Shown: positions 40,201 through 61,200 of the stretch, piece by piece
How positions within the stretch are numbered: the stretch's first letter is position 1
Layout: each line of letters begins with the position of its first letter
Assembly: GCA_024679065.1 (NCBI GenBank)
Contig: JAGIQG010000011.1
Span: 39,432,001-39,496,000 of the forward strand
Origin: Sphyrna mokarran
Taxonomy: Eukaryota
Length of the DNA: 64,000 bases
Reading direction: 5' to 3'
Program-made: the position numbers and the translations under genes
Notes under the pieces: model-generated
The model's input: only the letters and a program-made list of their open reading frames with translations
Database searches by the model: none
Told to the model about the DNA's origin: nothing

Positions 40201-43200
40201 TGGCAGCACTCTGAGCCTGTTTGGCAATAAGCTGAGATTTCATAACTTCAGTTTGAATTTCTACTGTTGTACTGATATGTTGGGGGCCTCTGTTTTGCTA
40301 CAATGGAAGTCAAAGCATCAGACATTGGGCTATGGTTGGGTCCAGAATGTTCTCATGGAATTTGCCACTACTTCCACACTGTAAAGAATGGGCTTCTAGC
40401 TCTGCACAAAACTCATGCCAACTTGGAGTCATACTTCTGCATATTTCTTAATAAGGAGAGGCAGCCTTCCTGGCAAGTCTGGTAATGCTTCAAGCATTTC
40501 TTTCTGCTTGGAAGCTAGACTTGTTGGATGAGGGTAAAGCACGACTTGAGAAGATGGGTGATCAGGAGGAACATAATGTCATCCTCAGTGGATTAAGCCC
40601 TGCCACAGGTCCCTGCTTCAGGAACAACTCTTACACTGCTGGCAAGCACTGTCTCCTCCATGGACATCAGCACATGCAGTTTCCCACACTCCCTTCTCAC
40701 CCCATCCTGGCAGGTGCCAGCTTGTCCTAGGAAGAGAGTAGGAAGTGTGTCTTCGAGTGTAGTGCAAAGTGTTTGAATATTGCGCATGCCACAGTTGAAC
40801 AGCTGGCAGAATGTACAAGTTGTGAGGTGCAAGTGTGCATCTGCAAGCTGCACAGTCACTTGGAAATATTTAGCTGTAACTCTCAGGCTGTGCTGCACTT
40901 CAATCTGTGCTATGCTGAAAATTTGCAGTTCTTTCTCTTGATTGGCTAGCACTTAACCTGTGGATTTCTGCTGTCTTTACAGTGTGGTTCTCTCTCACAC
41001 CACTTCTTTTGTCATTTTTGCTGCTGGGTGTTCCCATTGTTTGTACAGATTACCACTTTCTGACCTTCCTTCTTTTACATAATCAGTTCGTAACCTTAAA
41101 CAATTTTTCTATGTATATTTCAGCTGCATTATTTCAAATTATAAGCACTGCACAGTTATATTATTTGAATTTAATTGTGTTACTTTTAAGTTAATGCTGT
41201 AGCTTATTAAGTTGAAGTTTGTTTGCGAGATTACAGCCAATTCAGAACATTTTGGTGAAACTGCATTTTTTTAAAAATACATTTAGATGTGAAGGTTACA
41301 TGGTATAGTAAGCAGAAGGAGATCAAACAATCGCGATTCTTCAAGATGGTTCAGTTTGAAGATACCTATCAACTGGAAATTGCTGAAGTGTACCCGGAGG
41401 ATGAAGGAATGTATAAATGTGTAGCATCCAACTCTGCTGGAGAGGTGTCGTGCACTGCTAACTTAAAACTGGAAGGTAAATTAATGCATTCTTTATTTTG
41501 GCTTTATATGCTACACATTACATTATTTTTACATTTCTGTTTTCCTGGTCTGAATTTTGAAGCATATTCCTGCCTGTGGTTATTTTCATTGTTGGTAATG
41601 GTTAACATTGCCTGTGGCATTCATTTTTACACTTTAGCACCATTGGGCCAGCAAGCATATTCACTTTTTATGAAAGCATGTGCATTTTGTGCTTGTATTG
41701 CTGAACACCATTCCACCTTGTCTCTGTATCTCCATTGGTTGAAGCATTTCATCCATAATAGATTTCATCAAGCAACTCATCTAGTCTACATTTGTTTCCA
41801 AACCTGTAATAACTCATGACCAGTTCTTTCATCCGCCTCTAAGGTAAACAACTGAGGCTACCAGCTGTGCACTGTGGAATGCCACTATAACACGATTATA
41901 CTTACTAAATAAATTTCTTTTGTAAACAACATTAATATGTTACAACTGTAAATTTATTCAGCAATAAAGCATTGTACTTCATCATTTTGTTTGGATTTTT
42001 TTGTTAGATCTCCTCTTGCAGTGGCTTCAATTTTAAGATTTTTTTCAGTAAACTATAAAATAAGATGAAAGTTTTCATCAAATGCACCCAACTACCTCAA
42101 CCATACAAAGGCACACTAATTTTTAAATGACAAGTATGTGCCTTGACTTTTAATTTACAATGCCAGTCATACAGTGCAAAACCTGATTTCCTTTCCAGGA
42201 TATAGAAAGGTTGATTACATCAAATACATCATATGTCTACGTTTGGCTCTTCTGAAGAAGCAACATGAGTCTAAGTGCTTATCTTTAGTGTCTGCATTTT
42301 AAGTAGGCAAGTGCACATTGGGCTGGCAAGCATATTATATGCAATAGTGTCTGTTGGTCCCAAACCAAAGATCCAAGGATTGCATAGTGGACAGTTAATC
42401 AAGCCAAGTTCTGGTGCTTCATTTTGATAGTCTAAGAACAACAGTATACTTATTACTGATGCAAGAATACAATTAGGATTTCCTTGGTATAGTTCTTGTT
42501 AACTGACTTAGCAATTTCAGCAAAGTACAGCCCACATTGGGCAATATAAATATGCAAAGCATAAATAAACTGTGCTGGCAAAAAAATCTAATAGTGCTAC
42601 ACTTACAGTAAACAATTTACCCTCTGACTAGATATTTGCTGTAATTCTTCCAAATAGTATATTTTTTTTGACTTTGCATTTCATATCACCTCATGTTTCT
42701 AAAACCTGATTCCGTTAACACACAATTTAGAAGCCTTTCATCTTCATCTTCATCTGGAACATTTGCAAGAGAAGAACTAAATCTTCATTTTGTTCAATGA
42801 ATGCCATTTTCTCCCATGGAATTTTGCAGATTTTGTTGAGGAAAAGGAATTGGGAGTTTTCCTCAATCAAGTGAATTGCACCTCTTTAGCATGTGGTTAG
42901 CATGCTGGGTTGCCCTTTGGACAACATGAGCTGTTGCTTTGATTATTTTGTCAGTCATGATTTAATATCATGATTAATACTTTGTCTTTTGTTACTCAGA
43001 TTACAAAGTGCAAAGCATAGATAGTCAGAGCATAACAACTTCTGGAAAAGCTGTAGAGGAATCCATCGCTTCAAAGACTTTTGAAGTATCAGAAATGCAT
43101 GTGGAGTCCCCTGTGACCTTAACGCATACAAAGAACTATACCGAGGAAATCTGTTTGCAGCAAGAACATACATACAGTGTTCAGACATTTGAAAGTATTT

Positions 43201-46200
43201 CCATGAGTTCATCAAGCAAGACAGTTTCCTCTGGAAGTTGGGAAGAATGCCAAAAAATTGCCAAGACGGAAACAGTTAGAAGTGGCTGTCAAAATTCACC
43301 AAAAATCTTGCAAGATCTGAATGATGTCACAGTTTTGTTAGGTCAAACTGCATCTCTAAAATGTCAAATTCTAGCATTGCCTAGACCAGAAATAAAATGG
43401 TATAAAGAAGATCAAGAACTTATGGAAGTTAAGAGAATTAAAATTGTTACTATAACAGAAGATGAAGTTTTGACATCATCTGAATTAATTATACAGCAGA
43501 TCCAAGAAGAAGACACAGGAATTTATAGATGTAAAGCTACAAATCCTTTTGGCGAAGTTAAATGCAAAGCCAAAATAATTGTTACAGCAGCCAAACCTGC
43601 CCTTGAGGTTCCCCTGATTCTCCTTGAACTTAGTGATCTAACAGTGAAGGCTGGTCAGATGGCACAGTTCATCTGTTCTTTTAGCGGGGAATCTTTTACA
43701 GAGGTCATATGGAGTCACGGAAGCAGAAGACTAGAAGAATCAGGAAGACTGAAGATTTCTCAGAATGGAAATGTTATGTCTCTCACTATCCTAAATGTGC
43801 ACTTAGAAGATCAGGGACAGTACAGCTGTACTACAAGAAATGAAAGTGGTGAAAAGAAGACTACTGCTGTACTAATTGTAGAAGGTGGTTGTTTATTATT
43901 TTATTTTCAAACAGCATCCTGATCCATCCACTTCATGTATCTGTTCCAAAATAAGTTTAGTACCTTTTTAAGAAGATCCTAAGTTTACTTATTAATAGTA
44001 AAATGTTCAATTTAAAATGTTTAGCTAGTGACTTATACAAACCTTAACACTTGACACACCAAGTCTGCATGAATTATTGCAAACATTGCCTCTTGCTGTT
44101 ATAATTTTTTCAAGTATTTACTTTGCTGAAATTATTAAATCAGTTAACATTTATCCTAATTTTATTCTTGCATAGCTGAAGAATCAAAACCCAAAACAGG
44201 TGCAAAAATTCCCACTGATAGCAGCTCAGATAGCACAATAACTGAACAAAGACCACATATCACATCTGATAGCACACCAGAAGTACAAAAGAAACCGTCA
44301 AGTCCACCACCATCTTCAACCAAACGGCCAAATGGAAAAGAGAAGCTACGAAGCCGTGACTATTATCCTGACGTTGTGCCCTTTGACGAATTGATAGACA
44401 CTGGAGCCATAGCACCGATGTTCTTAGAAAAGCTGCCTCCAGAAATCATTGTTCAAGATGGAGAAGATGTGTTGTTGTTTTGCATCGTAAAAGGTGTACC
44501 ATCACCTTGTGTACTTTGGCTGTGCAACCAACGCATAGTTGAAGAATCTTCATTGTGTTCCATTAAACATGATGGGTTACTATGCAGTTTAAAAATGCAA
44601 AAAGTCTGCCAAAGGCACAGTGGCACTTATTCATGCAAAGCGGTTAACTCTGCTGGAGAAACAGCGTGCAACACTCTACTTAGAGTGACAGGTTGGCAAT
44701 TGCATGCTTTGGTCCTTCCCAATGTGACTTTATCATGCATCTCAGCACATCCTATGGAAAGATTCTTTGCAGAAAGTCATCTTGTTGACCTGCGGATTAT
44801 TGCATTCATTTTCCTGAAATCAGATTAGGCATGTTGAGGCATGTTTGTTGTTTCAATACACAGCAAATCAGAGAATGATTTTTTTTACAAAATCCTGGAT
44901 TGCCTGAATTATCTTTGTGATTCAGTCAACCAGTTGCTTGGTAAATCCTTCTAGAAATCACAATTAGCGAATATATTTAATTTTTTGGCATGTATGTTTT
45001 GTATGTCTTTGCATATTAAATGTATTTTGAGTTTCATTTTCCTTTTTGCATATTTTATTTTGTGGGAAAAATAGTGATACGTTCTTATAATTATATTCAA
45101 TATTCATTTCCATGCAGAAAAGATTCAAGACAAGATTGAACAACAGATAGAAATGGAAGTGAGAGGTAATACTTTTATCATTATTCAATAAACAATTATT
45201 TAACTTTGCATTTAATGCTAGGTTCGAACAACTGCTATCAACTTTGGTATTTTGCTTATCATGATAAGTTGTGCTGTGTTACAAAGTGTAAAAAAAATTA
45301 CAGGTTGTCTATGCCAATCTGATTTACAAACCCAACTTCTTGTTGTCATTCTCATTTTGACCTAAACAAAAAACCCTTTAACAACAAAAATATTTACTTT
45401 GCAGGAAATGTTATTTTTTAACCAGTATTAATTCCTCATATTTCAGCTGAATTTTAATTTGAAATTGCTCATTGTCATAACTGATACACTGCAAAAGGGA
45501 TAGATAGAGTTACATTCAGTAAGTTGTATTCTAACATGAATTATATAATGAGAAGTGTTTAAATGAACTCTCAAGTATCTGTCATTCAATGATTGAATGC
45601 TGAAAATATATATTTTAGTGGTGATTACTTGAATCAGTACTTTTGTTGTTCTCATTTACTTCTGATTTTCCAATAAATTTTTGATAAAGAACTCACAGGC
45701 AATATGTCATAAAGAAACTTTGACTAGATTCTTTTCCATTTTTAGCATTCATTTTCTTCCATTTTCATGACATCAACCTATCCTCATGTATTTACACTGC
45801 CTTGCAGATAGCAGTATGTGTTCATGTACGCTGGCATTTTTTTGCATAATATTGTGAATCTAGCAACTATATTAGTTCGAATAAACACCTTCTCATGCAA
45901 ATTGGAAGGATTACAGTTGTGGATGAATTTATTTCCATTTATTGATTCCAATTCTAAAAACTATCTCTGTCAAACTGGCTGAAAAATTTACCTGTTGTTG
46001 AAAAAGGATCAGAAAGGGCATTTATTCTGCTGTCTGCAAGTCAGGTAAGATTTGTAATAACCTAGATATCCCCAAATCACAGGGACAGATTTTACATTCA
46101 AAAATAACAAAATTCTGTCATGAGATCACGTTATGCTTTTTTCAAAACATACATTCTAATATGATTTTTGAGAAGAAATTGCAACAGTCTGAAGAAGGAA

Positions 46201-49200
46201 CAAAGAACGAGCGATTTTCCTGCTCAGAATCTTTAAAAAGAAAATGGTCTTGCGTTTATTCGAACAAATATGGTGAGTGAATTTTTTACAATATTTGTGA
46301 AAAAGCTGATCCATTAAGTTCATCATTTCATCATATTATAGATTTGTTCTAAATTTAATTCTTATAATGTTTTGAACTGCCTTTTAAGAAACTTCATACA
46401 AATTATTTCTTTTTTTTACAGAGTTGTTTTTTGATGCTGGGACAGAATATTTGGAAAATCGAGAAAACATGCGTGATGCATTTTCGGATGCCGAAGATTA
46501 TTTAGATCAGGGAATGGTTTCTGCTGATCGTTGTGCAAGCAGAACATCTTCTATAAGTTCTTGGTCTGAGAATTTCAGGCCATCTTTCACTGAAAAGCTC
46601 AAATTCAAATCCGTAATGGAAGGAGAACAAGCTGTTTTTAAATGCAAGTTGGTTGCCAGTCCAGCACCAAAAATTGCATGGTTTCATAACAACAGACCTA
46701 TATGTAAAGATTCAAGAAGGATTATTAAAATAGAAAGCATAATGCACATTCACAACTCAAGTTTGGAAATCAATAATGTAGAAGAGAAAGATTCAGGGAG
46801 TTACAAAATATTTGCAATAAACTCTGAGGGCTCAACAGAGGCAACTGCATCTTTACTCATTGCACTTAAAGAAGAGCAAAATGCAAATTATCTGAGCTTT
46901 GTGAAAAGATCAGAGATGGTTCACGAAAGTATAGACTCTTTAGTTAAGAAGCGGGATGCAAGACTTAGAGTTGATCTCAGACATGTTGGATCACCCTTTG
47001 ATAAGAAATATCAGGTTCAAGGAGCTTTGCGTAAACATTCAAATTCTAAAAGCAAACTGATGCGTACAATGTATTTTGAAAGAACACCAATAAGGCATTA
47101 TCTATATAAGGATAGATCTGCAGAAATACAGTCATCTAAATTATCAGGGAGGGTTTTCGATAAGGATAGCTTAATTGATGAAGATATTAAAATTAAATTG
47201 CAGCTTTTACGTGAAGCTAAAAGGAAAAAAAGATTTTCTCTTGCATTCTCTGAAGCTTCATTTGATCTGGGCACTGCATCGGTTGAAGACAATCTGAAGT
47301 ATAATTATGCATATTTAGACAGGGAGCGCAGCAGAAGTATGGGAGATATTGATCACATCGATTTTGAACCTAGTAAGTCTTATTTTGTGCAAGGACAGGA
47401 GCTGTCTTCTGGTAACTATTTCCAGAGAGAGTCTCCTGAATTTCAGTGTCAAATGGAGCGGGTATCAGGACTTTCTCTACAGGAAGTAGAGCCACAAAGA
47501 GACCTGAAAGAAAATTTTACTGAAGAATCTTCCAAAACAAAAGTCATAAAGTCATTACCAGAGCAATTTCTGAAAGGTAGTTTAATTCAAGAAGCAGAAC
47601 AAGAACAGGAAAGTCAATACAGATTGGAAGAAGAGGAAACCGATAAATGCTATTTTCAAAAGCAAGTTGATGAAAGAGAAGAACCACAGAGTGAACCTTG
47701 TGAAGAACCACAGACATTCTCTAACCAGTGGCTTGAAGGCTTTATTAATATGCAAAGGGATATAATAACAAAGGGGCCTGGAGAGTTGTTTGAGCCTCCC
47801 ACATCAGCAGTTAACGAAACACCAATAATTCAAGAAGCAGCACAGCCTGCAGCCAGTGTTGAATATCCAGAGATTTTACTGAAGGAAAAAGAATCCCCTC
47901 TGTTTGACAGAACACCAATAAAGCAAACTCCAGTGGAATTAAAAGAATGTCCAAGTAAATCTGAGTTGAAGGAAGACCATGAGATATTTTATGACCAGTG
48001 GTCTGAAAGTTTGATTAGTGTGCAGAACTCATTAGTGAAGGAAACTGAAAATAACCAGTCAATATTTGACTATTCCAGAGCAATTGAGATAAGTGGATCC
48101 AGATTTGGTGAACAAGATGACATGGTGAGAGAATCTTCACAAAAACAAATGCCTTCTCCTTTAATAGAAGAAAAAGAAGCCTCTACTCTGTTCAGAACAT
48201 CATTTGATGATAACACTACGGAAATAAGCACAATTTCATGCAGAGTTGAAGACAAAGAAGACCCTAGTGCATCTTTTGACACATGGTCTGGGAATGTCTT
48301 AGTAAAACAGGAGCCTGGATTTGACCACACAATCATTGATCCAACAAAATCCACTTCTGAGGAAAGTGAGATCAACCAAAAAGCAGCACAATTTGAGAAT
48401 GAAGATTATACCCAGATGATAACATCCTCTACTTTGCCAGAGAAAATAGAAACCTCAGAATTTGTCAGCTGCTTGGTGAAAGAAATACCAAAAGAAGTGA
48501 AGCATATTCCATTTAAATCTGATAAGGTGAACTATGGGACAACTGTGGAACATTGGCCTGAGAGATTCATTAGTGTACCTAGTGACTTACTAACTCAAAA
48601 ACCTGGAGATGGTCATAAAATATCTGACCAACCTGCATCAGCAGTCAGGCAGACAGAGGTAGTTAGTATGTCCAAAATCAGGCATAAAACCCTAGAAGAT
48701 GAAGCACAGTTTACAGATTCCAACCATGTTGTGAGACATTCTCCTCTGATAGCAAAAACAAAAGAAACATCAACTTTTACTAGAACAGTGAAAAAACAAA
48801 TTCCAGACGATATAAAAGAACCTCCGTATAAATCTGATATTGAAGAAGAATACGAGTCATCTTTTGATAAAAAGCATGGAAGATTTATTTGTGTGGAGAA
48901 AGACTTTCCAGCAGCAAAATATGAAGATAATCACAAAATCCCACTGACTGATCAAGCCAGATCAGCAATAGATCATGCAGAGGTGATTGATTTATCTAAA
49001 CTCAGTGAAAAAGAGCAGCATAAAGGCAAGGTTGAAGAATTCACTACAATACCAACAATTTGCATACCAGAAAAGAAAGAAACTTCAATATTTGTCAGTT
49101 CACCCATAAGTAAAAGAGCAACAGAAATAAGAGAACCTCCATATAAATCTGAAGTGAAGGATAGTCACCAGATGCCTTCAGAGCAATTTGTCGGAGGTTC

Positions 49201-52200
49201 TGTTGGTCTGATCAGGGGTTTTGTAACTGAAAAGTGTGAAGATACTAATGGAACAACCAATAGGCCCATACCATTACTCGAACAAATAGAGACAACAAGC
49301 AGATCTAAAATAAGTCAAAAAGAGTCACACCCCGAAGGTATGGTTACAAGCACCACCCAGATAATACACACAGAACCAGAGAGCAAAATTGAATCAAGCT
49401 TTTTCATTTCATTGAAGAAAGAAACAGCAATGGATTTCCCAAAAGAACCTGCATATGAATTTGGACATATGGAAGATCATGGAACAGCAGATGACCAGCA
49501 GGCTAGCTTTCTAACTGAGAAATCTGAAGAGAGTCATGAAATGTATAACCAACCTAAATTTACAGAAACACAGACTGAGATGATTAGTGTAGCTAAAATC
49601 AAACAAAAAGAGCCACAATATGAAGCAAAGATTGTGCATTCGACATGGATGGTGAAGCTGCCTTCTTTATCAGACGAAATGGAAACTTCAACTTATTTAA
49701 GTTCATTGAAAAAGCCAACTCCAATAGACAAAATAGAATCTCTTGAAAAACCAGAAATTAAGGAAGACCCTGAGACAGCCCTTGAAAGTTTTGCCATTAT
49801 GCACAGAGACTTCCAGACAGAGAACCTGGAAGGTGACCATGGAATACTTGATCAATCAGCAGATAGAGATATAGCAAAGATTAGCACATCTGAAATTAGT
49901 CAGAAAGAATCACAACAAGAGTGGAAAATTAAATGTTCTACCCAAATAGTGAGACCTTCTCCTTCAACAGAGGAAAATAAAACTTCAAATTTCTTCAGTT
50001 CATTAGTGGATGAGACACCAATAGAAGTACAAGAACATCAAAATAATTTTTTAGCTACCAAAGAATTTCCAAAAGAAGAGCCTCCTACAATTAAACATTG
50101 CCCACCTGAATTTCTCCATCATATTGCATCCACTAAAATTAAGCAAGGAGACTTGTGTGTGCTTGAGTGCCAATTTCAAGGACATCCACAACCTACTGTA
50201 ACTTGGTACAAGGATGAACGCCCAATTCAACAAAATATGGGCTATACTATTCACTCCATGGAAAACCAATCTACATTGAGTATTGGATGCACATGCAAAG
50301 AAAATGAAGGAGTATATACATGTGTAATATTCAACCAATATGGAACTGCAAGTACATCTGGCAGCCTTACGATACAAGGTAAGATTCTTAATGCTTTATT
50401 TATGAAATTATTTTCTTAAATATGTTTTTACAACATATTTTATGAATGATGACTTCAAACTAATGAAAAATATTTTTATTTTCCAGAACCAGAACTGTTT
50501 GAAGAATCTTTGAAAAGGTTTGACATACATGTTATTGAAGCACCAGAGAACTATACTGAAGAAGATGATGTTGATCAGTTGCTTGAAAATGAGATGGAGT
50601 CTTATGTTCCACCATTTACTGTAACAAAATCCACCTTGCAATTACCAAAGATTGCAGGACCGCGACCTTGTCCTGTAAATTTATCTTTGCTTTCTTCTCC
50701 TGTTGAGATTAAAATAACGGCTCCAACTCCAACACCAGAGCAAGATGAAGATCGGAAAGAGTTACTTCAAGAAGATGAATCTGATTCCAAGCATTCATCT
50801 CCAGAACTGTCCTCTCAGACCTCAAAGCACAAATTTACATTTTCTTTTGATGTAATTTCTGAACCCCCCCGTGTTTTGAAAGAATTAGATAAGATTTGTT
50901 GTGCAGAAGGGGAATCAGTGATGTTTGAATGTCTAATTTCTGGAGAGCCAACACCTATTGTTACATGGACACAAAATGACAGAGTTTTAACTGATGATAA
51001 TAGCAAGCACCGATTTGAAGAGAGTGGAGGAATGTATAGGTTATACATTGATGATGTTTCAGAATCTGATGTGGGGAACTATAAGTGTGTGGCTAAAAAT
51101 AAAGCTGGACAAGTACAGAGCACATCTAGTCTTAGAATAGAGCCCACAATGCATAGTTTTGTTTGCCATTTGAAGGATATTGAGCCACATTTTGAGGAAG
51201 TAGAGCCATCTGTCAGCCGTTTTCTCCTCAATTTAAGTAAAATGGGACAAGAAGGTATTGAGCAACAAAAACAATTATCACTACAGGAAGGGCATGTGGA
51301 CACTTCTCCTTTATATAGCAGAAAAGAACAAACGTTAGGGCTAATTTCTGAATCTGGAGACTCTTTTATTTCCACTGCTGATAAATTTTCGAGTAAAGTT
51401 TCATCTTTAAAGGAAGAGGGCATTGAAGCAATTATACGTTCAAATACTTCCTTTTCTGATGAAATTTCATCTTTGCAGGAGGAAAGCAATAAAACAGTCT
51501 CAGATTCAACAACTTCCTTTCCTGACGAATGTTTAAGTAAATGTTCGTCTTTAACAGAAATTAGTAAAAACATAGATCAAAAAATGCCAGATACAGCAGC
51601 AGAACAAACACATTCTATTAGCGAGTATCTGCGTTCTCTTGAGGAAAACCAGAAGGTGCCTGAAGCTTGGAAGATGGAAGAGGAAACAGAACCAAAAGAG
51701 GACAGATGTGACTCTGTGAGCGAAACGTATGAGGACAGTATATTCCCAGAAAGTGTATTTAAGCAAGTTGCAAGAAGTCCCAGAGCAGAAGCAGAAGGGA
51801 ATGGATCAGAGATTAAGTTAAGTGGTAACTCCATTTCCCCTGAATCCATCTGTGAAATAAATGTCAATCTAGCAGAAACAGTTTCTAGGAAAGATGAGGA
51901 AGATGAAAATGTTTCCATAGTACAGTATCTTCTTACTGCAAGACAGGAAGAAGCACCAATTAATGAAGAGGCAAATAATGATGCATTTGGGTATGATGAA
52001 TCTGGCATAACTTCGATGGAGATTGAGGAAGTAACATTCGGTGCTGTTTATGACTATTATAATCAAAATGAAGAGTGGGTACGCTCTCTGTCCCCTGAAT
52101 CTGAAATGTCAATTGAAATTAGCAGTACAATTAGTGATGATGTAGCAGAGAATGGAAGATTTTATACACCACCCTTGGCTTCTGATAATTTCAAATCTGC

Positions 52201-55200
52201 TGTGTCTGCAGAGTCATTCCATACCCCACCTCAATCTCCTGGCTATGTCACTCCTCCAGAGAGATTGCCTCCACTTAATGCTGTGGGTAGGTCTCCTTCT
52301 GGCACTTTGCTGGAGAGATTTTATACACCACCTGAATATTTCAGATCCCCAGTAGATGAGGGTATTGAAACAACACCTCTTGAATATATAAGTCTAGCCG
52401 CTGAGGAGCAAAGATCAGAGTTATTTTCAACTCCCGCACAGGAAGCTGAAGCAAAAGGAAATGAAACACCGCCAGCATTTATCAAACCTCTTGTCAGAAA
52501 AAAGATCTATGAAGGAGGCACACTTACATTTATCACTGAGGTAATTGGTTGCCCAGTTCCAAATGTTAAGTGGTATAGAAGGAAGTCATTACTGGAACCA
52601 GACCATAGAACTAGACTTGAAAGAGAAGGAAGTTTGTGTATATTGGTAATTCATAGCATCCAGAGAGAGGATGAGGGAGAGTACATTTGCAATGCTGTCA
52701 ACATCATAGGAGAAGCAAAAACTATTACTCAAGTGGATGTTTTACCACAAAATGGAAGGTCAATTGCATTGCCACCCCCAGTGACTCATCAACATGTTAT
52801 AGAATTTGATGTGCAGCAAGGCCAAACATCAAGAACTCCTTCACCTCAGGAAATTCTTCTGGAAGTTGAACTTGATGAACATGAAGTGAAGGAATTTGAA
52901 AAACAGATAAAGATTATTACAATTCCAGAATTCACCCCTGACAATAAAAACATGATTATCTCCTTGGATGTCCTTCCTATGATGATTGCTGAAGAACAAA
53001 ACGTTGATTTTGTAACAAAAGAAAATGAAGATGTGAAAATTAATTTTGAAGTCACTGAAACACCCCCACGATTTATTAGTCATATTTTTGACCTGGAAAT
53101 TCCAGAAAATACTGATGCAGTTTTTGAATGCTCAGTGACAGGTATTCCTACTCCTGAAATAATGTGGTTCAGAGATGATTCACTCATAACTTCAGATGGC
53201 AAGAAGTATATCCGAACAGATAATCCTAGTCACAGTCTCAAAATAACCAATGTTTGTCCTTCTGACAGTGGCATATACAGTTGCAAGGCAGTGAATAATG
53301 TTGGAGAAACAACATGTAGAGGTTATCTTGCAGTGACAAATTCAAATGTGACACTTACAAAATCTGGTGTTAGAGCAGTGGTAGTACAATTGGATAGTGC
53401 CCAAAAAGGACCTCAGCAATTAGATGTTGATGTTGGTAATTCTTTACTGCAAAACAATCAGAGTTCAGAAATTGAGGTTGAGTTTGATTTTGAGCAAGGC
53501 ACCGATGATTCTCAGAAATTGTTGAAACTCATAGCAGTAACCGAGACTGGAAATGAAGAAAAGGGAGAGAAATGTGTAAACATCAATTTTGATGTATTTG
53601 GTGAGCCTGCCAAGGAGGAAACTATTCAGTTTAAAGCAGAGGCTTCTGAAAACTGTTCATTTGAATTTCAAATGACAGAAACTCCACCAAAGTTTGAAGT
53701 AGCCCTCGTAGACTGTACCGCAACTGTAGGGAACTCAGCATCTTTTCAATGCCTTGTGACTGGTACTCCAAAACCTAATGTAATATGGTATATGAATGAC
53801 AGAATGATTGAAGGTGCTAACTACATCATTGAGGAGAAAGAATCTGGTCACCATTATTTGAACATTGCAAATGTTCAAGAAAGCGATGCTGGAGTATACA
53901 AGTCCAAAGCTGTTAACAAAGCTGGGAATGCAATCTCAGGAGCTATTTTAAAAGTACTTAATTTGTAAAATAGTACTTTTCTTCTGAATATCTTTGAATA
54001 ATGATGCATTTTGTTTTGGATTTATGGTGCATTTATGAATTTGCTAAATACAAACTTAAAAATTTACTACTAAAAATAATCATATTTTATTTGTAGTTGT
54101 TGAAAAGGTGGTTCATTTTTAGAGTTGATTTATAATAATTGTACCCTGCAATGGTTTATTAGCAGTGGAACTTTAATTTGTGGCTTTCAAAATATTAGCT
54201 GAAAAGTAACTATTACACAAATACTCATGGTTTTAGACTAGAAGTATAAAAAAACCTAGATGAGGTCAAAGGTGTTGAAAAATATTGATAACAAGCTATT
54301 CTAGATCAAACAAGATGGCCATTAATGGCTTGGTTGGCATCTTTAAACATGAGATTTTCCGATCCCTGTGGCACATTTTGCAATGGTAGAGGCAGTCTAG
54401 CATTGCCAAGCAGCAGGATTTTCCAGTCTCACTGCTGTCAACAAGGTTTCCCATTGTCTGCGCAGTCTGTCACTGGAATACCACAGTGAAAATCACTGCA
54501 AGATCCTGCAGTCGGGAATAGCTGGGAAATGCATTGAAGGACTGTCCTGTTGAATTTGAGGTAAACCCAACATGTAAACAAATAACATATACTTATTTGT
54601 TTTGCTATTCCTTCGTAGTATGTTATCACACTGGTTAGCATTACTATCTCACAGTGCCAGATACCTGGGTTCAATTCCTGGGGGGGGGGGTGACTGTCTG
54701 TGCAGAATCTGTATGTTCTCCCCGTGTCTGCATGGTTTTTTTCCAGGTGTTATGGTTTCCTCTCACAGTCTGAAAAAACGCACTGGTTAGGTAGCCAAGC
54801 TAAATTTTCCCTCAGTGTACCCGAACAGATGCCAGAGTGTGGCGACAAGGGGATTTTCACAATAACGTGTAAGTCTACTTGTGACACTAATAACTAAACT
54901 TAAAGTTATCATTGGCAATGACCTTCCCTGATTTTTTGGGTGATCTACTTTCAAAGACACTATCCAAACTACTTTGAAAATGCTGTAGCGCTGCAGGAAA
55001 ATTCTGTCATTCTGAATTCTTTGGCCCAACACCTTACTTCTGCATGAAGCTGTGACTGACAAATCAATTGAGTTCCACAATTCTCTCATGCAGAGGCCAA
55101 GGTGCTCATCTCATCAGAGGTTTGCATTCAAACACACGTCCTTCAGTGATAGGTGCTGCTCTTAATGTGCTTTCTGGAAATATTCAGTTCAAAGTGCATG

Positions 55201-58200
55201 CTTGTGGTTCATTGAAAGATTAGTTAAGATATTGAAATCTTATTAAGTGAGCATTTATCCTATTTGATATACAATAGCTGAATACTTTTGTTAACATTTA
55301 TTATAATTAAAGATGTAAACTAAGATGTGATTCATTGTTAATTCTTTGAAGACTATCATTTTCCACAGCAGAAAACATTTCATACAGCATGTTAGGGTAA
55401 AAAAATTAAATAAGGAAAAAAGTATCAGAAGAATGTTTTTAAAATTTTATATTTTAATAGACAGAAATAAATGTCCAGTTTGGCGATAATGTTTAATACA
55501 TTCTGTTTGATACAAATAGCATTTGACTGAATAACATTCAATCCCTAAAGCAGAGATTAAGTTATGAGGCCATGTTACCTGAACAGTCTGAAGTTGTTTC
55601 TATCTGGATTCTACTCTGTTTCCTGCGAGCACTACCATAGATTTAGACTTACGTGTGGTTTAGAAGGTACTTTAATTTAAAGGCTTGAAATTCATGTTAA
55701 TGATACTAGAGGAAAATCACTAACCATGCTGATTTGACATATCTCTGCCCAACATGTTAAGAGGATCATTAATCCCATTTATTTTAGCTGGTCTAATGCC
55801 ACAATTAAAATGCCCAGAGCAATGTCAGATCAACATGCTAAAGATTTATTTGCTAATATTACCAACAGCAATTTCTTGTCCAATATTTTATTATTGGGAA
55901 ATTAGTACCTGATAACTTTGGGCATTGTGGAATTGCCATTTCATGAAACTGTTTGACACTATGGAGATCAAGGCAAAGGATTATGATAGAAAGAACTGAA
56001 AGTGATGCCAATTGTCATGTGAAGGACAAGGATGGATATGCTTATCACTATGGACCACAGTTCTTGAAGGAATTTATGCACCAGGACAGAGCTACTCCAG
56101 GGATATGACAGGATAGTTTCTGTTGGCTATAATTTAGAGAGATTCTTGAAGCTTCGGTAAGTATGATTTCAATTATGGTATACCTCTGCTTTTACTCATT
56201 GTTATAATTTCCATTTAGATCTCATGTGTGCAGTACTTTGCAGCTAAGGTAGAGAAGAGTTTGCTTTATCCCAGCTGTTTTTGGTTATATAGGGCACAAA
56301 GTCCATGTGACTCTTTACCTAGATTTCTTATCCTGTCAATCAGAAAATATTTGGCACTCCTACCTTTCCTTTTTTCTGCCTTTATTGTTTCAGAAATCCC
56401 ATGTATAACCACTGTTATGCTAAAATATAGCAGTTTATTGGCATACTGGTGTAGTACGTCGCCACGTTGGCCAGATGTTCAACATTTGGTTTATTCTGTG
56501 TTTTACTTGTCATTCTGTTGTTGCTAACTTTAAGGCCAATGTCTAGAGAGGAGGGGGGTGGCCAGAAGAGCTTCAGAGATGGTTCAGAGCTGTAAGTGCA
56601 ATGTGTAGAATTAAGAATTCATTTTATGGAGTTGCAAAACTTACTGATTGTATTACCACATTTGCTTTTGGAGGGAGTAAGCTCTGTGCCCCAATGTATT
56701 TTAATGTGCCCTAAGAATTGTTATCAAATATGTCAGTTAAATCTTTTAAGCAGTTTCCATAATAGTAAAAGTAGAGCAGTAAACATGTATATTCAGTAAG
56801 CCTAAAGATTATGACCTTATCATAATACTGATAATTTCAGTGTTATTGCAAAGTTACAGTGAGATTGAGTCTTCAATGAGTTGACAGATAATCATATTGT
56901 ATCTATATGTGAGTCACATCTTTGAGTATCATTTTAATATTTACTTTTAACTTGTTATTTTTAATGTTAGAATTAAACTTTTCTATTGTAATCAATGTTT
57001 AATATTTGTGCAAAACTTGTAAATTGTTTAATAGTGAAGACGAAGCTTTGGTGGTTTGATTTGTACAAACGTCAAAATAAAAAAAATTGTACCTTTCACA
57101 ACATAAACATAGATCAACATTTTGGTCAACATATTTATCAGTTATGTTCTTGCAGTGCAACAGTTTATTTGTGAAAGCATGTATTGTTTATTGTCATTTA
57201 TCTGCCCCATTTACATGATTTATTATTTGATGAATGAAAAAAGTTAATCTTCCATCTTGGGTGACAAGTCCTTTAATACAGACATCATTCATTCCTTGTA
57301 CAGGTTTCTGTTGCTGTATATCGTAATTGTATCACGTGCTCTATGGGTGGTTAGTTGATAATAGTTTGGTTTTGGTATAGTAATAATGTGATTAATATGT
57401 ATGGCATATTTCCTTTAGCTTAACCTGTCCTGTCCTGAGACAGCTGCTCATGCTATGATGCAGTTCCACAGGCCCCCTAGTACCTTGCCCAACTGAATGT
57501 TTAATGATGGTCTGTGAATTTTGGTAAATTATTTGAGTGTTGACCAACATGGTGAATGTTATTCTGCATTTAACTGATGGCCACACATATACGACTGAAT
57601 ATCCTGGTTCCTGGGTTTTGGCAACAGGAGCAGTGGTATAGCTGGTAAACTAGCAGAAACAATGTTGAGATGCCTCCCCTTCGCTGACCCATTGCAGGAC
57701 ACGTTTTCTAATGATGGGCAGCAAGACAGTTAGCTACCTGCTCCATGGAGGCCAGCAACTAAGTTCCATACACAGGGCCCAATTAAAGGCCATTTTACAG
57801 ATCCATCATCATTTACTAGTGGCAGGTAGGCCCCCATTGAATGGAGAGTCTGCCAATTTCCAGGAGCTCTTCTGCTTTGCCTGAAGGGGCCTTCAGAGCC
57901 AGAAGCTTCATGCTCCACAAAGAGGCCACAAGTACAAAAGGCAGCCCAAACACCCCTAACAATCCTCTGGAGTAGTTTTGTTTTGTAATTGGTGTGGCCA
58001 ATTGCTGTCATCCCTTCCAAAGTTTAATTTTACTTACCTCTGTGAGGCTCCTTCACTTTCAATCACCTCAACAGCTATGTCCTGCCTCAGCAGTGCCCTA
58101 CTTTCCTGGTGACAAGGCCCAAGTTTCAGATCTGTCAGTCTTCTGATTGGGCCAGCAACATCAGGAGCCAGAGTTCATAATTGGATGGTGGGTTCTCAGG

Positions 58201-61200
58201 TGGCTAATTAGGGCAAAAGATGTGCTGGTTAGATGCATTGGCCATGCTAAATTCTCCGTCAGTGTATCCAAACAGGTGCAGATATGTGGCAACTAGGGGA
58301 TTTTCGCAGTAAATTCGTTGCAGTGTTAATGTAAGCCTACTTGTAACACTAATAAATAAACATAAAGGAAATCAGCTGCGGTAAAATCATTGAGCCAGTC
58401 CTTCTGACAGCAAATATGGGCTCAGGATCTGCTTTTCACCCTAAAGACAGATCCTGAAGCCCACAGTGAAAAAATGGCCCCACATTCATTTTGGATTGCT
58501 GGATAGTAATTAGGAAAATAATCTTTTTTAGATTTTATGTTGCCATAGCCTGGAGATGCTGAAGTCAATTTTAGCATTTCATTGCTCCCTAGTTAAGAGA
58601 GGTTCAGCATAAATCAGGTTTTGTGTGGCATAGGATTAGACAAATGTTATACTTGTTTCCTGAACTACTGGACCAGATCCTGGCTTAGTAAATTGTTATC
58701 ATGTAAACCAGCATGGGTTTGACAACATTGAGTTATCAGATGATTGGCAAGGTTTACAAATGAAAACTGTTATTTTTCATTCTGAAACTTGGCAGACTAT
58801 GAAATTATCAGACAGATAGTATTATTATTAAGGTAAAAGTAAGAATGCATTTTTCTCTTAGTTTGCTTGTGATATGACTTACTGCTCAAATGTGATTTAT
58901 TTGATTGAAACATTTGTATTTCTGTGATGGAATAAAATTTATATTAGAAATTACTCAAGCCTTTAGAACATTTCTAGCATGCAAAACAATTTTGTATACT
59001 GATAATTAATACCAACATGACTACCTTGTAATGGAATTTTGTAAAATTCTTATGGCAAGATGGTTACTGAGTTAGTTTTTACTCATTTTGATTCAGAAAT
59101 GGAGAATATTGATGTGACATAAAATCATTTTTATCTGTAAGTAGTTACTCTGGCTTTTCAGAAGATATGTAATATCTACAAATCTCAGTAAGTTTTAAGT
59201 TAAATGGTTTGATTTTGACTTGAGAAATGAAGGCAAGTTTTTTTTTATTTTGCTTGTAAGCTGTTCAAAATAGCTTGAGGCAAAATTTTTCTCTTGCTTT
59301 GGACTAATTCTATTCACAATTAATGGATCTGATTGTATGTTTTAGTTAAAGATAAATCTTTGAGATAAACTATTACAGAATTGTATTCTTTTGAGGCAAT
59401 TTGAACTTAGCATGCAAAGTTATGTGATTAATTTTTGTGATTATTTTCAGTTTCCAGTACTAAGAAACGTCACTCACCATCAACGCGCATTCTAAATTTA
59501 AGCATCTTATTTCTTATACAGAATTTTCTAGCTCTGTTACCGTCGCTGCTGAAGATAAGAGGGAAGATTTCTACAGTAGTGACCTCCATGTGTCAGATCA
59601 AACATTTGAACTCAAACCTGAAACAGCACCGCTTTCCAGCATTTTAGACATAGAAGCTAAGCCTTTAAAAGCAATACCAGCATTTGTTAAAAGCATTTCC
59701 AGTATAGAGGTAGTTGTGGAAGATGTAGCTAAATTCACTGTGACAATAACTGGATTCCCCAAACCCTCTATTCATTGGTTTCATAATAGTAAAAAATTGA
59801 CTCCTTCATCAAATTGCAAATTTATTTATGATAGGGATGAATATAGTCTAATTATACCTTATGCAAAATTTACAGATGAGGGAGAATATACTTGCTCAGC
59901 TGCTAATATGCTTGGAACAACTTCATGTAGTGCATATCTGAAGATCAAACCAAAAGAAGGTATGGCAGGGTTTAGGACATCAGCTTCAAAACCTCCAGTT
60001 GCAAAACCGACAGATAAAAAAATAAGCAAAGAGACATTCTCAAAGGAAATTATGTCAACTATTCCAACAGAAACCATACATACCCTTAGAGGTCAGCCAC
60101 CACATTTTTTCAAAGAACTTAAATCTTTGCAGTGCCCAGAAGGTCTGCCTGCTAAATTTGACTATATAGTGAAAGGTGAGCCAATGCCAGAAGTGCTTTG
60201 GTATAAGGAAAACGATCAGATTCACCAGAGTGTGCAATGCAATCTTAGATCCAATCCTGATGGCTCTGGTTCATTAACTATCAATAATGCACAAAAAGAG
60301 GACAGTGGTTTATATTCCTGCAAAGCTTTTAACTCACTTGGTGAAACAACTTGCACTGCAGAGCTAATTGTATTCAGTGGCACTTTTGCTACTGTTGAAC
60401 ATAAGAAACAGGAAGTAGCTCAAAAGCACCATACTAAGTCATACACAAAGACTGTTGGTGACCACGCCACAGAATCACGTTTATTCATGGTAAAGTTACC
60501 TGGTGAGGCTCAGGCTGAATTACAAGACAAAGATCAACTGGTGTACACAATAGCTTCTGAAGGTAAACATTCGGTTCACAGTGAGCAGACAGGCACATTG
60601 CATGATGTGACTGTTTCTGCTGCAGAAACAGCAATTGCAGGAAAGAAACAGATAATAATGCATTCACAAACTACACAAGAAAGTCTGGGTTATATAGAGC
60701 AACATTATGAACCAATTAAAAGTCCACCAGTATTTGAATTATCAAGCACTGAAGTACAATTAGATTCTACCCTTTGTTTGCCCACAATTGAGGAGAAAAC
60801 TTTAATTCCAAAGGAAGGCAGTTTTAGTGTCAGAGATTCATCTACTATAGATACTAAGACAAAGACAAAAGAAACAAGCATCTTGTCTGTGGAAAAGCAT
60901 CTAATTCCCAGCTCCAGGACTGTTGTAGAGAAAGGAATATCAAAAACAGAGCCAGCATACTCTTTGCACAGCTATAAGGTTGAGGGAGATCAAGGACCAC
61001 CCAAAGAGACATTGCTTGGTTTTGAAATTCCTGCATTACAGAAATGTGAAATACAAAAAGAAAGAAAAATGGAGGTTCATACAGCTGTAGCAATGGAACA
61101 GAACAAAATAAAGCATGAAATGGCAGAAGACATACAAATGTTAGATGAAACAAGAGAAGCAAAATCATTTAAAGAAAAACCAGAACCATTCTTGATGACT

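Follow-up and report, generated by a model that had tools for sequence, protein, structure and literature searches.

The window, by which we mean the whole 64,000-nucleotide (nt) stretch of DNA that was analyzed, carries on its forward strand a run of titin exons that includes the equivalent of exon 47 (45118–45165; 48 nt, phase 1-1), the Novex-3 unit and, as read from the sequence, the N2B exon, the equivalent of exon 49 (59522–63433; 3912 nt, phase 1-1). Exon 47 has an alternative donor that serves either Novex-3 or the downstream exons, and assembled contigs from two sequencing runs (X1 and X7) join it to position 46422. Novex-3 begins there with a 5′ exon (46422–50378; 3957 nt or 1319 codons, phase 1-1) in which, based on Pfam matches and the contigs, an Ig domain is followed by a long insertion sequence and another Ig domain, the two domains being I18 and I19 by position. 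The coding part of the 3′ exon (50487–53968; 3482 nt) specifies four further Ig domains (Pfam) and a TAA stop ending at 53968, beyond which RNA-type contigs continue as 3′ UTR to about 54400. Downstream of the stop, the first poly(A)-signal hexamers (ATTAAA at 55306 and 55405, AATAAA at 55466; 55306–55471) are candidates that lie beyond the region covered by the contigs. The 2.77-Gb genome has a single Novex-3 locus, with no further titin Novex-3 copy. The named sequences most closely related to the 3′ half are from sharks: Cetorhinus (84%), Stegostoma (77%) and Pristiophorus (77%).

The Novex-3 (Nx3) terminal exon, TTN exon 48, reportedly goes back to Bang and colleagues in 2001. The shark unit is like it in lying between exon 47 and the N2B exon, in being spliced from exon 47, and in having six Ig domains with long insertion sequences, its own stop and a transcript that runs into the 3′ UTR. 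Its coding size is 7439 nt, compared with 6077–8039 nt in eight bony vertebrates (PMC5852582), and human exon 48 likewise has six Ig domains, I18–I23 (PMC13649281). The preliminary description of this DNA stated that human Novex-3 is one large terminal exon and that mammals lack an intron in it; both statements agree with Table 1 of PMC5852582, in which TTN exon 48 is a single exon from human to zebrafish. Unlike that exon, shark Novex-3 consists of two exons, split after the second Ig domain.

The split is made by a phase-1 GT-AG intron of 108 nt (50379–50486), which begins with GTAAG, ends with TTCCAG and contains an in-frame TAA at 50417–50419. Two long open reading frames (ORFs), 46388–50419 and 50453–53968, abut around it, and its G+C content is 18.5%, against 37–38% in the flanking exons. 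The intron lies directly 3′ of the second I-set domain (Pfam, residues 1240–1329 of ORF 46388–50419), as had been described, and its coordinates, phase and arithmetic were likewise correct in the preliminary description. Once it is excised, 46422–50378 and 50487–53968 form one open frame of 2478 residues with two plus four I-set domains (Pfam). The donor (AAG|GTAAGA) matches eight of nine consensus positions, a score reached by 18 of 60 other titin donors and exceeded by none of them. With a matrix derived from 55 titin acceptors downstream (donors were likewise scored by counts from this gene), the acceptor scores 11.1, the median being 10.9, with 12.8 for the N2B acceptor and 14.7 for that of the Novex-3 5′ exon. 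There is a branch-point-like CTAAT at 50460, 23 nt upstream of the acceptor, and the splice joint has a 2-nt AG ambiguity. Donor and acceptor are both strong, and just 108 nt separate them. A search of the genome, which ignores common words and in which old copies would have decayed, returned no copy of the intron other than its self match and hence, within that scope, none of the related copies that a transposon-made (introner-type) intron would have; there were no tandem repeats within 40000–64000.

Of 13 sequencing runs listed, none of them recorded as RNA, the assembled contigs of four were compared over 46400–54400. We classed X1, X7 and X2 as RNA-type based on their spliced contigs and X8 as DNA-type based on its unspliced contigs and size. 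X1 has no letters differing from the window; X7 and X8 come from one and the same other organism (X7 is about 96% alike to the window), and X2 from a third. X1 (depth 42) and X7 (depth 65.5) each yield one contig, about 8.3 kb long, that extends from exon 47 across 46422–50378 to 50487–54400, and in X2 a 364-nt contig of depth 5 crosses the junction. All three spliced assemblies omit exactly 108 nt with GT..AG ends, which makes the segment a real intron, beyond chance, and the transcript composed of exon 47, the 5′ exon, the 3′ exon and UTR, coding for the usual six-Ig Novex-3 tail, is present. The X8 contig (49901–53547) retains the intron and is gap-free, so the intron is 108 nt long in that related species too.

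We looked for other forms in the same contigs. No graph break or loose end was listed at 50378 or 50487 in any of the three RNA-type runs, nor was there a contig with the intron retained. The depths computed from the spliced contigs for the bins on either side of the intron (37.6/29.4 in X1, 58.6/45.9 in X7 and 4.87/3.99 in X2) fully account for the reported values (37.6/29.4, 58.6/45.9 and 4.87/3.98), which leaves no depth in either bin for a further contig with the intron retained or with exon 47 joined to 50487. Exon 47 provides an internal positive control: the contigs of both X1 and X7 start about 30 nt into it, as is typical where the assembly graph forks, here at an alternative donor that is already known. 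When such assemblies are cleaned, a form can disappear if its level is below about one-tenth to one-quarter that of the main one. With three RNA-type runs, their tissue not on record, and with assembled contigs that drop rare variants, "constitutive" is an upper bound on the alternatives, and minor or tissue-restricted forms are compatible with the contigs.

The preliminary description had proposed that the intron turns the 5′ half of Novex-3 into a symmetric cassette, from which full-length titin with about 1319 additional residues, a mini Novex-3 and, by intron retention, a truncated form could be made, an isoform repertoire absent from mammals. Sharks might make such forms in some tissue or at a low level, and all three are possible on paper. 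The 5′ half preserves the frame (3957 nt, matching phases 1-1); exon 47, the 5′ half and N2B are open together over 2638 residues, exon 47 spliced directly to 50487 stays in frame for 1175 residues to the normal stop, and retention would bring a stop after 1347 residues. The neighboring Novex-1 and Novex-2 undergo alternative splicing in vertebrates, and their products include intron-retained forms (PMC5852582), and Novex-I inclusion is variable in elephant shark muscle (PMC12241362). In X2, moreover, the depth is 12 on the 3′ half and 3–5 on the 5′ half. However, this step lies near 50660 rather than at 50487, and the depth climbs to 20.9 in the UTR, as 3′ bias would give. Phase 1-1 is the rule among titin I-band exons, nearly all of which have it, so the symmetry says little for a cassette and has no predictive value. 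While the frames hold, the forms themselves did not appear: in the three spliced assemblies there was no fork at 50378 toward N2B, no contig joining exon 47 to 50487 and no retained intron. Of the junctions named in the preliminary description (50378–50487, 50378–59522 and 45165–50487), only 50378–50487 was observed, as far as contigs can show over 46400–54400, a stretch outside which N2B lies and from which joins to N2B or to upstream exons are visible only as contig breaks or loose ends. This is the outcome that the description itself had set against its proposal, and the repertoire it claimed is not borne out at this resolution; no junction competing for the 5′ half was seen in the three assemblies, minor forms being below contig resolution. 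Heart and muscle PCR contigs of the elephant shark vary in Novex-I and N2B, and no part of Novex-III is mentioned for them in the sections of PMC12241362 that describe them. Among the small sample of stored shark and ray proteins, none combines the 5′ half with an N2B-like Ig domain. Counts of TGCATG and TCTT motifs, which we take to be RBFOX and RBM20 sites, respectively, showed nothing specific. We therefore regard regulated use of the 5′ half as improbable. A bolder version, to which we give slightly less credence still, takes the 5′ half to be an ancient cassette internal to titin, on a par with Novex-1, Novex-2 and N2B, that enters full-length titin of sharks in some tissue or stage and there joins the Z-disc-binding N-terminal segment of Novex-3 to the full spring, an option that bony vertebrates would have lost through intron loss and exon fusion.

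The reading that we hold to be likely is that shark Novex-3 contains a 108-nt spliceosomal intron that has been spliced out in each of the three RNA-type assemblies, is probably constitutive, and was probably present in ancestral jawed vertebrates and lost in bony vertebrates. Isoform choice would then take place at the donor of exon 47, as in mammals, and the small intron would be removed by default. Once the acceptor at 46422 had been used, the strong donor at 50379 would pair with the acceptor 108 nt away, well before the N2B acceptor 9.1 kb downstream came into play. The giant exon of bony vertebrates probably arose through fusion of two exons at an Ig boundary by intron loss.

For the distribution of the intron we used 45 matched proteins, of which 40 were kept as Novex-3 orthologs with both flanking Ig domains and five (P0001, P0003, P0005, P0011, and P0036) were left out as non-orthologous or partial. 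The orthologs span chimaera to mammals. The linker between the second and third Ig domains is 125 residues long in the spliced window sequence and 161 residues plus a stop in the unspliced one; in the orthologs it measures 86–143 residues (113–129 in 37 of the 40, and 122–124 in gar, turtles, and lizards) and is 161 in none. The spliced junction sequence is present in automatic NCBI or UniRef proteins of Cetorhinus, Carcharodon, Stegostoma, Chiloscyllium, Pristiophorus, Mobula, Amblyraja, and Callorhinchus. These automatic cartilaginous-fish models share the junction and are labeled "titin-like" or "unc-89-like," and the split itself is shown only for a skate cluster. In that cluster the Logan ORF P0051 opens in intron-like sequence 5′ of the exon and, like the unspliced frame of the window, terminates with Q-GK ten residues beyond the second Ig domain. 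The cluster holds two 5′ ORFs of 1299 residues, two 3′ ORFs of 1119 residues whose contigs have the same two lengths as those of the 5′ ORFs, and a spliced Amblyraja radiata model; the second ORF begins just downstream of the end of the 5′ ORF, and the Amblyraja model is spliced at the same spot. The occurrence of split ORFs and a spliced model in one cluster indicates that the intron is shared by skates. The related species of X8 and skates carry the intron at the position that it occupies in the window, and for any genome that contains it the public gene models already reflect it implicitly.

Among proteins without the split, P0035, which belongs to a cluster of 140, starts within intron-like sequence, as do the four cluster members inspected, and continues across the junction uninterrupted; since its junction resembles that of the Cottoperca model, we have taken P0035 as presumably teleost. 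The Callorhinchus model has a spliced-type junction with a linker eight residues shorter and is compatible with the intron being present or absent. A search for split chimaera ORFs gave 12 matches, the sole relevant one being the skate ORF. No recognizable jawless-fish ortholog was among the 26 matches of a linker search of cluster representatives (two were unrelated repeats and most carried no taxon name), and the 22 matches of a search with the 5′ half were two Novex-3 orthologs and generic Ig proteins. The preliminary description had looked to a mapping of the intron across vertebrates to decide between gain and loss. Such a mapping does separate sharks and skates, which have the intron, from bony vertebrates, which do not; however, the tree sampled with these groups cannot root the change.

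The donor of the intron falls 19 codons after the second Cys of the Ig domain, in phase 1. In the 50 kb of tandem-Ig titin downstream, a GT occurs at this same register in 55 of 63 Ig matches (55 of the 57 with an anchor), the eight not scored as standard comprising six without a Cys anchor, one mis-anchored, and one first Ig domain of a two-Ig exon. Five upstream exons in the window share both the register and the phase. The AAG|GT context is also that of the titin tandem-Ig I-band introns, and the length of 108 nt lies within the range of 82–4481 nt of the downstream introns; unlike those introns, this one is located in an alternative terminal unit and is lacking in bony vertebrates. Because the donor sits exactly at the standard boundary of titin Ig exons, we favor, with some reserve, an intron that was ancestral in jawed vertebrates and lost in bony vertebrates over one that was gained. 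Of the four other internal Novex-3 Ig ends, the three that could be anchored have no donor at the standard position, so that it is normal here for several Ig domains to share an exon with no intron between them.

A constitutive intron gained at a proto-splice site in the elasmobranch or chondrichthyan stem, with the single exon being ancestral, would cost the same as one loss on the sampled tree. The site is indeed MAG|R, and a figure legend for the elephant shark refers to "the Novex-III exon" in the singular (PMC12241362), though the human gene served as the template for that structure, which was drawn by eye. Gain is nevertheless unlikely in our view, based on the requirement that it strike an internal Ig end, which at random would concern about 5 of 7439 positions or about one of 271 MAG|R sites. 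Both estimates are rough, and there is some circularity in them, as the MAG|R may be due to the intron. The intron also has no other genomic copy (one match), and C. milii, a chimaera and not a shark, is reported to have undergone fewer intron changes than any bony vertebrate (PMC3964593). Its length, a multiple of three, and its location inside what is one exon elsewhere would also suit coding sequence carved out of an old exon (an exitron). The segment, however, contains a stop, has a G+C content of only 18.5% and was not seen retained in the three RNA-type runs, and the spliced linker of 125 residues already equals that of gar, turtles, and lizards, so that no 36 residues are missing. As the linkers of the 40 orthologs fit the spliced length and none the unspliced one, and as the retained form is not open, we rejected an intronized exon, an origin that is very unlikely. 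An assembly artefact or an exon broken in this genome alone is scarcely credible and is refuted by the splicing in X1, X7, and X2 and by the X8 contig from another species; the skate ORFs carry the intron as well.

The elephant shark connectin gene likewise has Novex-I, II, and III and N2B exons (Hanashima et al., 2025, PMC12241362), although Novex-III was omitted from the cDNA work of that study, the searched text and supplement of which do not mention an intron in Novex-III. A split Novex-3 is not mentioned in the literature that we searched (titin/connectin, sharks, and novex), a coverage outside which subscription journals mostly fall, and as far as searched the split exon is new as a described fact. 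The picture of Novex-3 as an always single giant exon shifts to one in which sharks and skates have two exons, and the intron is a clean marker for how the Novex-3 exon was built. If the intron is ancestral, its loss would date to the stem of bony vertebrates. It also marks a natural module boundary after the second Ig domain for dissecting Novex-3, the N-terminal part of which was recently reported to bind the Z/I junction of titin (PMC13649281). A constitutive intron changes no protein, and the functional payoff is small unless minor isoforms appear.

The preliminary description also had all exons from 43000 to the N2B exon in phase 1. This is correct for the coding exons (43000–43884, 44176–44691, 45118–45165, 46422–50378, and 59522–63433, all phase 1-1) and fails for a candidate frame-shifting exon between exon 47 and Novex-3, which has two acceptors 15 nt apart and one donor (46173/46188–46272) and hence measures 100 or 85 nt. 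Joined to exon 47, it leads to a stop within one to six codons. Exon 48′ of PMC5852582 has the same two sizes, 85 and 100 nt, and the candidate has the look of a poison exon whose conservation would reach from sharks to humans. Four cartilaginous-fish models (P0002, P0007, P0009, and P0010) have an N-terminal 38-residue peptide from the exon 48′ region in frame with the Novex-3 exon. The peptide may reflect the way in which annotation worked around the poison exon, or else an internal start, from which a Novex-3-only protein would be made.

Elsewhere in the window, the Novex-1-like exon (43000–43884) is 885 nt long with two Ig domains, the Novex-1 exons of eight bony vertebrates measuring 372–390 nt (PMC5852582, Table 1). 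Only its second Ig domain matches turtle and Xenopus titin well (57%), which indicates that the shark exon has an extra Ig domain. Within the N2B exon, a good phase-1 donor (AAG|GTATGG) at 59960 after the first Ig domain would permit a 438-nt in-frame mini-N2B exon (59522–59959), and a weak GT occurs at the standard register after the second Ig domain (60377). Two related repeat-like stretches, at 54600–54900 and 58255–58345, are presumably SINE-like; the first is within the likely Novex-3 3′ UTR, near the end of the X1 contig. The long insertion sequence has in-frame indels at 48370 and 49625, with 15 nt inserted in X7, X8, and X2 and 9 nt missing in X2, and its length differs greatly among shark models (proteins of 2371–3234 residues). 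ORF 313–1287, in the Z-disc part of titin, contains imperfect Ala/Gly/Arg-rich repeats, possibly a lineage-specific expansion. On the 3′ side of the window, the contig at 39496001–39546000 has about 60 exons of one Ig domain each, arranged in a pattern that recurs every six exons, which agrees with the expanded 6-Ig super-repeats reported for cartilaginous fishes (PMC12241362).
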